A stretch of DNA of 64,000 nt. Origin: a virus. Its lineage: Duplodnaviria; Caudoviricetes. The stretch spans positions 96,001 to 160,000 of the IMG/VR virus record IMGVR_UViG_3300005611_001698; one strand, given 5' to 3'. How positions within the stretch are numbered: the stretch's first letter is position 1; every line of letters begins with the position of its first letter. The notes below the pieces were generated by a model. That model was not told where the DNA came from. It saw only the letters and a program-made list of their open reading frames with translations, and did no database searches. Both the position numbers and the translations under genes were made by a program. Shown piece by piece: positions 9,454 to 26,120 of the stretch.

Positions 9454-9483
9454 CGCACTTCCTTCACACAAAGGATATTTATA

Positions 9484-12062: not shown

Positions 12063-12713
12063 TTAGATATTTTGCAAAAAGTCGTTAAAGAGACTTAATT
12101 TCTTTTCGTCAAGTTGTTTTTGATCAACAAGAGTGTTAATCTGGGCATATGTTTTAGCAGCATACTTTTCACGGAGGATGCCACCATCCCATACCCACTC
12201 TTTTCCTTCCATGATTCCCTCAACAAATGCATCAGGTGCGGAAGGATCAGCAACGATATCAGCAGCAGTTGCTAACATGAAATCATCACCTACAACATTG
12301 ATTCCCTCTCTTGTAAGTTTGAGTGAACCAATTCCTCTGGAAGAGACACCAAGTTTGACACCTTCCTCTACCAGAGAAGCAGCAATCTTACCCATTGGGG
12401 TGTTGAGGATTTTTGCCTTACCGATAAAGTTAGAACCACTCTCTCTGAGTGATACAATCTTATGTGAAACTCTATCAAGGTTTACAGTAGGACCTTCGGG
12501 ATGACCGAGTTCTCCAAGAGCACGTCCTTTTTGAATATGATTTTCGTTGTATCTTCCAACTTCACGGCGAAGTGTTTCCATTGGATACATGCGACCGTTG
12601 CGGTTCTTGATGTTTCCTTGCAGAAAAACACCTTCGATATAAAGTTGTTTCTTACCGCCTTTGTTTTCGATAAGAAATTCAACTGATTCGATTTCTTCTG
12701 TGATGAGTTTCAT
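12063..12713 (-). CDS. g21: Prohead maturation protease (gp21)
   Basis: NRNGRMY, GELGHP, GVSSRG and DIVADPSAPDAF motifs. Confidence 0.98.
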   Translation of the reverse strand: MKLITEEIESVEFLIENKGGKKQLYIEGVFLQGNIKNRNGRMYPMETLRREVGRYNENHIQKGRALGELGHPEGPTVNLDRVSHKIVSLRESGSNFIGKAKILNTPMGKIAASLVEEGVKLGVSSRGIGSLKLTREGINVVGDDFMLATAADIVADPSAPDAFVEGIMEGKEWVWDGGILREKYAAKTYAQINTLVDQKQLDEKKLSLFNDFLQNI

Positions 12714-13509: not shown

Positions 13510-13517
13510 TATTTATA
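13510..13517 (-). promoter_or_regulatory. T4-type late promoter TATAAATA containing the g20 stop codon
   Basis: Exact consensus; the TAA at 13513-13515 is the g20 stop. Confidence 0.8.
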
Positions 13518-22206: not shown

Positions 22207-22533
22207 TTAAACCCAATCTAATTTGGCAGGATGATATCTTTTACTGTTTGTAATGTTAATTGATTTAGTTCTTTTTTCTTCGACAGGATAAACGTTCTGA
22301 ACGATTGCGCCTGGGTATTCATCCTGAATATCTTCTGTCAAGTCTTTGTTGGAGGGAAGATCTCCATCAATAGAAAACTCCATTCGATAGAGATTACCTT
22401 CCCATACAACGTCAGCAACAAAGTTCTCGCCAACCGATTGTTGCTCTTGCTGTTCACCACCGATGATAAGTGTTCCGTTAAAGTCTCCTGCGATATTTAC
22501 GCTTTCGGAGAGAAATTGTTTGAAGGATTTCAT
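22207..22533 (-). CDS. Putative internal head protein with capsid-targeting-like N-terminus (108 aa)
   Basis: Start revised to ATG 22533 (TGATG overlap). MKSFKQFLSE resembles the T4 IPIII capsid-targeting sequence MKTYQEFIAE. Confidence 0.65.
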   Translation of the reverse strand: MKSFKQFLSESVNIAGDFNGTLIIGGEQQEQQSVGENFVADVVWEGNLYRMEFSIDGDLPSNKDLTEDIQDEYPGAIVQNVYPVEEKRTKSINITNSKRYHPAKLDWV

Positions 22534-24356
22534 CAGCAGTTCCACGCTCTAAGGGACTTATTGATTCTGCTATCGGGATCGTTAGCAGTCTTGGCAGAAG
22601 TCAGTTTCTTCTTCATGCCTTTCATTCTTGCACAGAATGATGCACGACGAGGATTGCCAACTTTCTTTGAAGGTGCTTTGAGATCCGAACCAGGATTCTC
22701 TCGCTCATAAGACTTACGTCCTTTTTCGTTCAAACCACCTGAGGGATTCTTGCCAGACTTCTTGGTCCAAGCAGCTGCTTCACTCATATCACTTGCAGCT
22801 TCTTCTTGCTCTTTCTCACTAGCATCATCTACACTATATTTTTCCCACATCTTAGGACCATATCCACATTGACTCTTGGTTTCTTTTTTCTTACAGAGTC
22901 TACAATATTTTTTTTCGGAATCAGACTCCTCTTGCATATGCATGTCAGTATTGCCACCTTTTTGAACTGCTTTTTGTTGCAGTTGAAGTTTTTGGCGATT
23001 AAGAACTAATTGCTTTCTTTGGATTGCCTGTTTTTGCTTATCCTCTTGTTCCGTTTGCTCACTTACTCTAATCAATGGTTGAGTTGGATCAACCGTAGAC
23101 TTCATATATTGAGTCACACGGGCATCAGGATAAATCTTTTGAACAGCATCAGTGACTTCTTGCTTAGATGGAATACTTAAACTTGGGAAAAACAGTTGCA
23201 TCATATAAAACTTTCCTCTGAAAGTGAGGAAAACTCTCATCAACTGACCATTTTCACGGGGAACCGTAACAGCCTCAATGACATTTGAACTATCTGCTTG
23301 TCCAGATACATTTTCAACCTCCTCTTTCTCGCAGCGGTTGTAAGTCTTACCAAAGAGTTTCTGTGTGCCTACTTTCTTATAACCTTTCCAGCACTTTTTC
23401 CCTGCCTCGTTAATCTCAATAGCACCAATTGATTCCAGAGCAGCGATCTGTGAGGGCGTGAACCCCTCTTTCTTGGTTTTATTGCCCCAACTATCGGCAC
23501 CGACTTTACGGCACTTTACAAGGGCACCAGAGGCATATGCAGAAGGCCATACTTTATAACGTGATTTGACCTTATGGTAACAAGCGTCTTTTTCCTCTCC
23601 ATAATGAAACTTTCTATCTTTTGTTTTTGTTGGAAGTTTACCACTTCTTACTTTTGTTGAAGAAGTTTCACCATATCCCTCAGGATGTTTACCAACTTTT
23701 GTTTTTCCAATGTTATCTGATTTTGCTTTACTCCCTTTTTCGGTATAATGCAACTTTGCTGGTTTATCTTTATCCTTTGTAATCACGGATTCCTGACCAT
23801 GTTTTCTACCAAGACGACGCATCACTTTTCCAAAACGCCTCTTTGACATTCCTTTTCCAGGACTGGTATGGTATGAAACTTCTCTTCCTGTTTCTCCGCT
23901 ACCATACTTATATTCACCTACACCTTTTTTATATCCAATACCATGTTTTTTTAGATCTTTTTCTAATCCCTTCCTCTTGGCACGATTTGCCTTTTCGTCA
24001 GACCCTCTATCTGCGGAAATGTGTCCAGTAGTTTGAGTCTTGGATTTGCTCATCGCTCTTGCAAGACCACCTTCTTGTACAAATTCTTCTGTCTTCACGT
24101 TGATTGCCTTCCCTGATCTTTCTGGATTTGGATCTTGACGATTCTTTCGACGAAATGCTCTCTCCTCTTCATCCTTAGAAAGATTGCGTTTCATCTTACT
24201 TGAACCACACTTTGGTTTAGTTGTTTGTCCTGGTTGCTTAGCACATGGTTTACCAGCATATTTGCCGCCAAGTTGAACCCAACCAGGTTTGCCATCAGAA
24301 GACTTACTCTTGCCAAACCAATCATGTAAAGAGGAGTCGCCGCTCTTGTTCGCCAT
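22533..24356 (-). CDS. Modular basic late protein, putative protease-processed internal head polyprotein
   Basis: Lys/Arg-rich modules separated by short hydrophobic-X-E linkers; late promoter directly upstream. Confidence 0.7.
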   Translation of the reverse strand: MANKSGDSSLHDWFGKSKSSDGKPGWVQLGGKYAGKPCAKQPGQTTKPKCGSSKMKRNLSKDEEERAFRRKNRQDPNPERSGKAINVKTEEFVQEGGLARAMSKSKTQTTGHISADRGSDEKANRAKRKGLEKDLKKHGIGYKKGVGEYKYGSGETGREVSYHTSPGKGMSKRRFGKVMRRLGRKHGQESVITKDKDKPAKLHYTEKGSKAKSDNIGKTKVGKHPEGYGETSSTKVRSGKLPTKTKDRKFHYGEEKDACYHKVKSRYKVWPSAYASGALVKCRKVGADSWGNKTKKEGFTPSQIAALESIGAIEINEAGKKCWKGYKKVGTQKLFGKTYNRCEKEEVENVSGQADSSNVIEAVTVPRENGQLMRVFLTFRGKFYMMQLFFPSLSIPSKQEVTDAVQKIYPDARVTQYMKSTVDPTQPLIRVSEQTEQEDKQKQAIQRKQLVLNRQKLQLQQKAVQKGGNTDMHMQEESDSEKKYCRLCKKKETKSQCGYGPKMWEKYSVDDASEKEQEEAASDMSEAAAWTKKSGKNPSGGLNEKGRKSYERENPGSDLKAPSKKVGNPRRASFCARMKGMKKKLTSAKTANDPDSRINKSLRAWNC

Positions 24357-24377
24357 TCCTAGAAGAGAGTCTCTTTT

Positions 24378-24385
24378 TATTTATA
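24378..24385 (-). promoter_or_regulatory. Late promoter TATAAATA for the 607-aa gene
   Basis: Exact consensus; contains the TAA stop of the upstream ORF. Confidence 0.85.
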
Positions 24386-26120
24386 CTTCTATGGCAGTAA
24401 AGACAGTTTTGAAAGTGGTTTGAGCACCAGATGCTGGATATCCAATCAATCTCAAAGATCCACCATTAATATCTGTTGAGAAAGTTGCTACTCCTACCGG
24501 TTGATTTATAGTTCCATATTCAGACATGTATGTAGTTGTTCCGTCATGTATCACACTAATAGTGGTTGAATTATAATTTGTACCCTCAGTTACTTGAATC
24601 TGATAGTTAACAGATCTATAAGTAGAAGCACTGATCGACATTACAACTGCTGGCCCAGTTGAATTTGTTGTTAAAACACCAGACTGAATATCACCAGCAA
24701 TGAGTTCTAAATTTGTTGCAGATACTGGCGCAAAAGTAAACTCAGAAGAAGATGCATCATACCTTAAAAATCTACCATCTCCAAGGTTTGAAGAGTTTAC
24801 ATCAGTCAAACTAATCAAAGTGGATGATCCACTTAATGCAGTGCTGGCAATACCAACCCATTTAGAATTTGTCTGATCGTAAATAAGAAGTTTGTTATTG
24901 CCTGTTGCTCCGTCAAATTCAACATCATCAAGATCTTTGATAAATCCTGCTCCGCCGCCACCCATTGTTGACAGTTGAGTCTGAACTCTGTTTATGAAAA
25001 TTCTATAATGCTCTGCCAGATCTTTTAGTGTGGCAAACTTTTGATCCATTGGGGTGAGTGGATCTTGTCCTGTTCCGATGTTTTCTGGTTCATCTGGTGG
25101 TTCCGTTAGGAGATAGTTCTCCTGTAAGTCCTCAATCCTTTCCTGCTTTATTTGAATCTGTTCAACGATCTCTCTTAAACTTTCAAAGTTTTTGAGATCC
25201 TCTTTTATCTTATTGATATCTTCTTCATAATATTTTGGTTTTGGTAAACCATTGAGTTTATTTTTGAGAGAATCTACTTCAACATCAATTTTATTTCCAA
25301 CATACTCAAATTTTTTATTTAAAGATTCTTCAATCCTTTTTACAGTCTCAGCAGTTACATCTGATACATCATCTATCTTATTATTAACTTGATCTGTTAT
25401 AACGATTTCAAACTCTTTTTGATTATCTTTAAGTTTCTTTTGGAGTTTCCAAATAATTTCAGATTGTTCTTTCAGTTGATTGAAAATCTGTTCTTTAAGA
25501 GTTCCAACTCTATCATGGATATTTTTAAAGTCCGTTTTGGATTCAAAAGCAAAAACTTCTTTTTCTTCTTCAATTCTGTTTAACTCATCTTGAATACGGG
25601 AAGAAATAGTTTCTACACAATCTTCAACTATCTTAAATCGCTCATCAACTGTATTGAAAGTTTGCCCAACCCATGTAAAATCAGGAACTTCTGTGACTTT
25701 ATCGATCCAGGATGGAAGTGAAGGAATCGATTGTTTTACTAACTGTATAGATTCTTTGATTATTTCAAGTTCTTCCTCATAATATCTTACCTCTGGAACA
25801 ACTGGAATAGATGCTTTTATATCATCAATAATCTCACAAATTGCTTCAAGTTCTTTGTCATATGTTTTTATTTCAGGTATTTCTGGAATATTTTCGCGGA
25901 CATTATTGATTAGACGTAAAAGTTCTCCCCATTCTGGTGCCTTAACAACATCAGATATTTCAATGCTGGGATTGCCATCAAGATCGTCAATAACTTGAAT
26001 ATCTTCTTCTACACTCTCTTCCTGCAAATATTCTTCAACCGAAGGAAGTAACACGGTTTGCCCAACGATATCTTCAATAGATGGTAATTCGTTACTATGC
26101 TTTTGGGGCATTTTAATCAC
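24381..26120 (-). CDS. Coiled-coil protein with C-terminal virion-type beta domain
   Basis: Acidic coiled coil with repeated PxxxYY(D/E)E motifs, a GGGGAG hinge and LxDLxDV repeats. Confidence 0.75.
   Translation of the reverse strand: MIKMPQKHSNELPSIEDIVGQTVLLPSVEEYLQEESVEEDIQVIDDLDGNPSIEISDVVKAPEWGELLRLINNVRENIPEIPEIKTYDKELEAICEIIDDIKASIPVVPEVRYYEEELEIIKESIQLVKQSIPSLPSWIDKVTEVPDFTWVGQTFNTVDERFKIVEDCVETISSRIQDELNRIEEEKEVFAFESKTDFKNIHDRVGTLKEQIFNQLKEQSEIIWKLQKKLKDNQKEFEIVITDQVNNKIDDVSDVTAETVKRIEESLNKKFEYVGNKIDVEVDSLKNKLNGLPKPKYYEEDINKIKEDLKNFESLREIVEQIQIKQERIEDLQENYLLTEPPDEPENIGTGQDPLTPMDQKFATLKDLAEHYRIFINRVQTQLSTMGGGGAGFIKDLDDVEFDGATGNNKLLIYDQTNSKWVGIASTALSGSSTLISLTDVNSSNLGDGRFLRYDASSSEFTFAPVSATNLELIAGDIQSGVLTTNSTGPAVVMSISASTYRSVNYQIQVTEGTNYNSTTISVIHDGTTTYMSEYGTINQPVGVATFSTDINGGSLRLIGYPASGAQTTFKTVFTAIEV

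Follow-up and report, generated by a model that had tools for sequence, protein, structure and literature searches.

A SAM lyase domain in a variable slot of a basic carrier protein of a T4-like cyanomyovirus

S-adenosylmethionine (SAM) lyases are known as early-expressed enzymes with which T3-like coliphages counter restriction and bacteriophage exclusion (BREX). Few viruses on Earth are as abundant as the marine cyanomyoviruses, yet little is understood of defence and counter-defence in Prochlorococcus and Synechococcus. Here we analyse a 64,000-nucleotide stretch of viral DNA (positions 96,001 to 160,000 of record IMGVR_UViG_3300005611_001698), referred to as the window, in which an open reading frame (ORF) of 607 residues (P0001; positions 22533-24356) carries a domain of the SAM lyase family at residues 96-254. 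All positions given for the window refer to features on its minus strand.

The T3 SAM lyase (SAMase, gp0.3; structures 7OCK and 8BB1) belongs to the same Pfam family as this domain and has the same single-chain alpha/beta barrel, which in T3 is monomeric and nine-stranded. Its removal of SAM disarms SAM-dependent defence, according to the T3 work (bioRxiv 2023.02.27.530186), and the same role would be expected here. The settings differ, in that T3 makes its enzyme early and as a protein on its own, whereas here the lyase would be one domain inside a virion protein made late. Identity between the two is about 12-15%, and the domain described here is strongly basic. The N-terminal tail with which T3 SAMase binds MetK (M1-N9) has no sequence counterpart in our protein, where the segment before the domain is an unrelated helix; the T3 SAMase paper found this tail to be missing from divergent SAMases. 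Svi3-3, from an environmental phage (6ZM9, 6ZMG, 6ZNB), is a further member of the family and shares with our domain an identical Q-E-S-V motif as well as G-x-Y and E-x-S. Svi3-3 is a trimer with its active sites between subunits, whereas our model is nearer to the monomeric T3 barrel.

Among cyanophages, gp6 of S-CREM2, a T4-like cluster C cyanomyovirus, is a direct homologue. In S-CREM2 the domain is N-terminal, behind a leader of its own, and is encoded among replication genes, whereas here it is internal to a GC119-type carrier encoded between terminase genes. The passages of the S-CREM2 paper that deal with gp6, a “SAM hydrolase,” report its detection in virions purified on caesium chloride (19 peptides) and suggest that it enters with the DNA and counters restriction; these passages make no mention of a leader or a protease site (PMC10665884). 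In P-SSM2, P-SSM4 and S-SSM5, the cluster T4-GC 110 is a SAM lyase alone, a separate gene of 169-235 residues, and T4-GC 119 is a carrier without insert; here the mature part of GC110 lies inside GC119 in one reading frame. P-TIM40 is a further isolate with the domain.

The internal proteins of T4 provide another comparison. They are loaded into the prohead by a 10-residue leader, the capsid targeting sequence MKTYQEFIAE. For targeting, leader positions 4 and 7 matter, for cleavage positions 8 and 10, and the T4 protease gp21 cleaves after L/I-x-E (PMC9026906). Ip1, Ip2 and Ip3 are injected inhibitors of GmrSD, as described in a 2025 paper. Relatives of the SAM lyase have a 10-residue leader that is nearly identical to it and ends in L/I-x-E, and the two systems would also have in common late expression, a basic character, a protease of the gp21 type and the anti-restriction logic of IPI to IPIII. 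In contrast, the T4 proteins are small GmrSD inhibitors and not SAM enzymes, and their leader is N-terminal, whereas the motif described here is internal, degenerate and part of a multi-module protein. The Pfam family definition and, from the gp6 passages of the S-CREM2 paper, the 2023 proposal of a virion-borne SAM hydrolase protecting incoming DNA were already known. What appears from the sequence to be new is an internal, slot-inserted SAM lyase in a putative virion carrier protein; the literature searched on SAM lyase in combination with cyanophage, virion or packaged described neither the leader nor the slot-inserted form.

A SAM lyase domain with an intact SAM-binding site

A sequence-only reading of this DNA had proposed, from a match made by eye, that residues 96-254 resemble T3 SAMase. 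The six strings on which that proposal was built are present in the ORF translation in the order described (ISADRG, ANRAKRKGLEKDLK, VGEYK, GREVSY, MRRLGRKHGQESVI and AKLHYTEKG), and ORF arithmetic places the domain at 23595-24071, with residue 96 starting at 24071 and residue 254 ending at 23595. Excised from its context, the domain matched Pfam PF23780 (S-AdoMet_lyase) with 32.6 bits (E 9e-8), the gathering score of this family being 28 bits; it also weakly matched phrog_2226. Only the excised domain gave the PF23780 match, which was not listed in a Pfam scan of the whole 607-residue protein. A single-sequence phmmer search of the Protein Data Bank (PDB) with residues 80-270 returned noise only, and a profile was needed.

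An exhaustive search through 1.84 billion representative proteins yielded 128 relatives, and 53 relatives of full coverage were aligned with the domain. Every one of these 53 homologues matched PF23780, the best with an E value of 3e-22. When the profile of the 53 members was searched against 177,635 PDB sequences, it found only T3 SAMase (7OCK/8BB1, E 5e-5) and Svi3-3 (6ZM9, E 3e-3). The profile alignment paired the same T3 strings on which the by-eye match was based, and T3 SAMase aligned from its residue 13 onward, well downstream of the motif at the N-terminal boundary of the domain described below. Pfam DUF3293 was also matched by 24 of the 53 homologues (best E 2e-6); as judged from these matches, this DUF family may belong to the same superfamily as the SAM lyases.

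The structural comparison proposed along with the by-eye match gave the same answer. We compared an AlphaFold2 model, built from the alignment of the 53 relatives (predicted local distance difference test [pLDDT] 83.8, predicted template modelling score 0.78), with known structures using Foldseek and VIA-align, and both put T3 SAM lyase first. The top Foldseek matches were 8BB1 (8BB1_E, E 9.5e-5), 6ZM9 and 7OCK. Against structure representatives, VIA-align superposed 138 of 152 residues of the predicted structure on T3 SAM lyase (7OCK_L) with a Z score of 13.3 and a root mean square deviation of 2.9 Å, while Svi3-3 (6ZM9) scored Z 7.1 and the first unrelated fold Z 5.8. The model thus fits the monomeric T3 barrel better than the Svi3-3 form (Z 13.3 vs 7.1). 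Identity to the solved enzymes is 12-16%. The preceding stretch, residues 88-95 with V-Q-E95, has low pLDDT and is disordered in the model.

Three columns alone are invariant in the 53-member alignment, namely G147, E159 and Q188 (53/53 each). Near-invariant are Y149 (50/53), S161 (51/53), E189, present as E or D (52/53), and S190 (45/53). The profile alignment pairs G147, Y149, E159 and Q188 with T3 G55, Y57, E68 and Q94, and in the 6ZM9 alignment their Svi3-3 counterparts are Gly56, Tyr58, Glu69 and Gln104. Across the enzymes with shown activity, only Gly56, Glu69 and Gln104 (Svi3-3 numbering) are strictly conserved, with Tyr58, Ser71, Glu105 and Ser106 as further ligand contacts in Svi3-3 (PMC7877911). 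In that enzyme Gly56 and Tyr58 lie packed on the ribose and form a cation-pi contact with the sulfonium, Gln104-Glu105-Ser106 hold the homoserine moiety of the ligand, and the substitution E69Q leaves activity nearly gone (PMC7877911). In T3 SAMase, an E68Q/Q94A double mutant was used in solution studies. The corresponding motifs of our protein are G147-E-Y149 at 23910-23918, E159-V-S161 at 23874-23882 (S161 matching Svi3-3 Ser71) and Q188-E189-S190 at 23787-23795 (matching Svi3-3 Gln104-Glu105-Ser106). Because of this conservation and the alignment with the T3 and Svi3-3 ligand sites, the four residues picked out by eye (G147, Y149, E159 and Q188) are exactly the functional ones.

Three independent tests, by family hidden Markov model, by predicted fold and by ligand-binding residues, thus support the SAM lyase reading, and computation places residues 96-254 in the phage SAM lyase family, as a domain of T3 SAMase type whose SAM-binding site is intact. 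We infer from the sequence that the domain splits SAM into methylthioadenosine and homoserine lactone.

A variable slot in the GC119-type carrier

Alignment with GC110 and GC119 of S-SSM5 and with gp29 of S-SCSM1 identified the 607-residue protein (isoelectric point 9.9; phrog_727, E 1e-141) as a T4-GC119-type basic carrier with an inserted SAM lyase. The carrier’s N-terminal module, residues 1-87 (SLHDWF...GWVQLGG...AINV; 24096-24356), is common in the alignments to relatives without a SAM lyase. Residues 88-95, KTEEFVQE (24072-24095), border the cargo slot on its left; they resemble a degenerate T4 capsid targeting sequence and end in V-Q-E95, followed by G. The insertion point lies between ...AINVKTEE and EKDACYHKVKSRY, and the inserted stretch starts within EFVQE, the leader-like motif, and extends to ...FHYG, where the free-standing protein naturally ends. 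The carrier modules 3′ of the slot, residues 255-607 with the stop codon (22533-23594), start with EKDACYHKVKSRY and contain a module like phrog_1742, a coiled stretch and a motif rich in Cys. They end in a DUF6321 module (residues 535-605; 22542-22754; Pfam PF19846, E 5e-23), the most conserved part of the carrier.

In a wider alignment of carriers the content of the slot varies. The slot is empty in the relatives P0139 and P0144, holds the SAM lyase in P0001 and P0133-P0136, holds DUF192/UPF0127 (PF02643) in many metagenomic relatives, among them P0180, P0201 and P0239, and holds a different insert in P0153 and P0155. We considered an assembly or frameshift artefact as the source of the fusion and rejected it, since the same architecture is present on several independent contigs at 78-88% identity (P0133-P0136); this recurrence also indicates that the fused form is real and maintained. 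Comparison of these sequences thus shows the SAM lyase to be a cassette in a variable slot of the basic T4-GC119/DUF6321 carrier of a T4-like cyanomyovirus. The comparison would also give a function to T4-GC 110, a “hypothetical” cluster.

We tentatively suggest, giving it somewhat less than an even chance, that the GC119/DUF6321 protein is a modular delivery vehicle, with a protease-bounded slot among whose effectors recombination swaps, and that the pre-made enzyme is loaded into the virion. Fusion and fission would be nearly neutral in such a vehicle, because the protease separates the parts. If the suggestion is right, phage lineages would each differ in the ready-made enzyme that their virions bring into the host along with the DNA, and the cargo slot of a conserved virion protein might perhaps be usable for protein delivery.

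SAM lyases fused in another arrangement were also found. The proteins gp194 of S-SZBM1 (L010:1845-3968) and P0003-P0026, of about 420-760 residues, end in the SAM lyase domain, and an internal FxxF[LI]xE motif precedes it.

Proposed late expression, cleavage and packaging

The sequence-only reading further supposed that the protein is made late, packaged and released by protease. A perfect T4 late promoter box, TATAAATA, read from the sequence at 24378-24385, lies 21 nucleotides 5′ of the ATG and shares nucleotides with the stop codon of the preceding ORF, and an AGGA ribosome-binding motif (24357-24360) stands immediately 5′ of the ATG at 24356. Exact copies of the box occur five times in the window, all on the minus (coding) strand and at gene borders, and two of them sit just 5′ of gp22 and gp18. 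Their total is not above chance (5 vs 3.8 expected). The box at this gene fits late expression, and from the promoter box and the position of the gene we infer that the gene of the 607-residue protein is probably transcribed from a T4-type late promoter. Two further boxes, at 9476-9483 and 13510-13517, touch or run into the stop codons of gp23 and gp20; the next long ORF is about 300 and 225 nucleotides away, in contrast to the boxes that directly precede gp22, gp18 and the 607-residue gene.

At the N-terminal boundary of the domain, the 53 aligned members have L (34), I (13), V (4) or M (2) at P3, E at P1 in 52 of 53, and G, S, A or T at P1′ in 48 of 53, giving a family logo of [LIVM]-x-E followed by [GSAT]. 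In the 607-residue protein this motif is V-Q-E95 followed by G, which fits the specificity of T4 gp21, with the proviso that cyanophage gp21 may differ. The presumed processing enzyme is a gp21-type prohead serine protease encoded at 12063-12713 (Pfam Peptidase_S77, E 1.4e-34). Carriers in the wider alignment keep [IVF]-x-E at the edge of the slot even where the slot is empty. We therefore dropped the idea that V-Q-E95 is purely a leftover of the SAM lyase’s own leader; the motif may belong to both carrier and lyase. Comparison supports release by protease at the N-terminal boundary, which a gp21-type motif marks; no canonical motif follows the domain.

Leaders of the T4 type are found on many of the free-standing relatives themselves. 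The pattern M[KR][TSN][FWY]xx[FWY] opens 26 of the 127 representative relatives that start with Met, as in MKTYQEFMLE, MKTFQEFMVE and MKTFNEFISE. The contigs of two distant leader-bearing homologues are 1.4-4.7 kb long, with unannotated neighbours. S-CREM2 gp6, which is 41% identical to our domain over 125 residues (E 7e-16), begins MKDFDSFLEE, and gp154 of the same phage, a non-structural cytidylyltransferase detected in the virion, starts MKNFSSFLTE. In the sequences compared, the leader tracks the non-structural proteins found in cyanophage virion proteomes. An explanation can accordingly be offered for the presence of a SAM hydrolase and a cytidylyltransferase in these proteomes, because both carry a T4-like head-targeting leader. 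The genome studied here also encodes, outside the window, a 403-residue cytidylyltransferase-like (NMNAT-like) protein (G000:C1:78637-79848; L014:638-1849; minus strand) that starts MKTFSAFIQE followed by A. As for the carrier, its homologue gp29 bears a virion-protein annotation in S-SCSM1, a phage whose virion proteome was determined by mass spectrometry. Packaging of the 607-residue protein is plausible by comparison and by analogy with these homologues.

We favour, with moderate confidence, the reading that the SAM lyase is packaged in the virion, cut by the protease and injected, and that it weakens SAM-dependent host defences. The carrier with its SAM lyase would be built into the prohead, where the gp21-type protease would cleave after V-Q-E95. 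The basic enzyme would remain with the DNA and enter the next host alongside it, and by analogy the lyase is probably delivered with the phage DNA. SAM would then fall before any phage gene is read, and type I and type III restriction and BREX would be weakened. If this is true, a virion-delivered, pre-made SAM lyase acts ahead of any phage transcription; it would parallel the injected GmrSD inhibitors of T4, as an enzyme that removes a cofactor.

Sequestration in the head would also matter to the phage itself. The genome encodes three SAM-dependent DNA methyltransferases, two Dam-like (MethyltransfD12) and one N6_N4, at G000:C1:161985-162599, 91198-91926 and 170125-170877, the first and third past the end of the window. 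Late in infection, we expect, a SAM lyase at large in the cytoplasm would compete with these enzymes, and its sequestration in the head would spare them during replication.

Several observations weigh against packaging, cleavage and injection of the lyase. The N-terminus of the 607-residue protein, MANKSGDSSL, has no targeting leader, and the internal copy, KTEEFVQE, is without the aromatic residue at leader position 4 that is important for targeting in T4. There is no L/I-x-E after the domain (...FHYGEEKDA), the next candidate sites being A-L-E308 followed by S and then I-N-E318 followed by A; since no canonical motif follows the domain, the enzyme may remain attached to its neighbouring module once E95 is cut, at least as far as the first of these sites. 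The glutamate at 95 and its aliphatic P3 residue could be conserved for folding instead of cleavage, and the rule we apply is that of T4 gp21, from whose specificity that of cyanophage gp21 may depart. The S-CREM2 authors caution, where they discuss the virion proteins, that non-structural proteins, where abundant, may be purified along with virions (PMC10665884). The status of the carrier homologue as a virion protein, on which the analogy draws, does not fix the head, as opposed to another virion site, as its location. Finally, an injected SAM lyase would likewise compete with the phage’s own methyltransferases.

Some of these observations suit a different role, in which an active SAM lyase acts late in the producing cell, on host methylation, SAM-using pathways or co-infecting phages, and is not an injected payload. 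A 607-residue protein without an N-terminal targeting leader would be expected of such an enzyme, virion detection of homologues may be carry-over in the sense of the S-CREM2 authors’ caution, and the late promoter and gene position indicate timing only. We judge this role unlikely. The phage’s three DNA methyltransferases need SAM during DNA synthesis, T4-type head-targeting leaders and the protease motif occur in the family, a homologue of the carrier is a virion protein, and the gene is set among neck, terminase and tail genes.

The composition of the domain raises the question of whether it is an enzyme at all. With an isoelectric point of 10.3 and 42 K+R against 17 D+E, it could have retained the fold and lost the function, serving as a basic DNA-associated internal protein or virion filler like IPII and IPIII of T4, whose internal proteins are described as highly basic; the identity of just 12-16% to solved enzymes is in keeping with this. 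The ligand site speaks otherwise, since the three strictly conserved SAM lyase residues are invariant in all 53 members and the motifs G-x-Y, E-x-S and Q-E/D-S are retained. This is the pattern expected of purifying selection on a ligand site, which a filler protein would not need, and we consider loss of enzyme function quite improbable.

The same low identity to characterised enzymes, together with the fact that the literature searched reports no assayed member of the cyanophage subfamily, leaves some room for an active lyase of this fold whose main substrate is another marine sulfonium or adenosyl compound instead of SAM. Residues that touch the ribose, amino group and carboxylate of SAM are all retained, however, and nothing points to another ligand, so we give this substrate change very little weight. 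A chance resemblance, made by eye in a lysine-rich, low-complexity protein, would account for the empty single-sequence phmmer search and for the omission of PF23780 from the whole-protein Pfam scan, but it can be rejected because the domain-level Pfam match, the PDB profile search and two independent structure searches agree on the same two enzymes alone.

Gene layout around the carrier

The window covers the structural region of a T4-like cyanomyovirus, whose virus record is 194 kb long and rated complete. Minus-strand genes include gp23, gp22, the gp21 protease, the gp20 portal, gp18 and gp19, as well as the large terminase gp17, the small terminase gp16, gp15, gp14, gp13 and one baseplate gene. 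The 607-residue ORF is positioned between gp16 and gp17. Immediately 3′ of it lies a gene of 108 residues (22207-22533), whose ATG shares one nucleotide with the stop codon of the 607-residue ORF. The N-terminus of its product, MKSFKQFLSE followed by S, is a T4-like capsid targeting leader, and the product is a paralogue of the module at residues ~362-433 of the 607-residue protein, as phrog_1742 matches indicate.

Between gp16 and the 607-residue gene, at 24381-26120, lies an acidic ORF of 579 residues with a coiled-coil look, a beta-rich C-terminal part and weak matches to tail-fibre PHROGs. It occupies the place held in P-SSM4 and S-SSM5 by the 178-residue T4-GC 403 gene.

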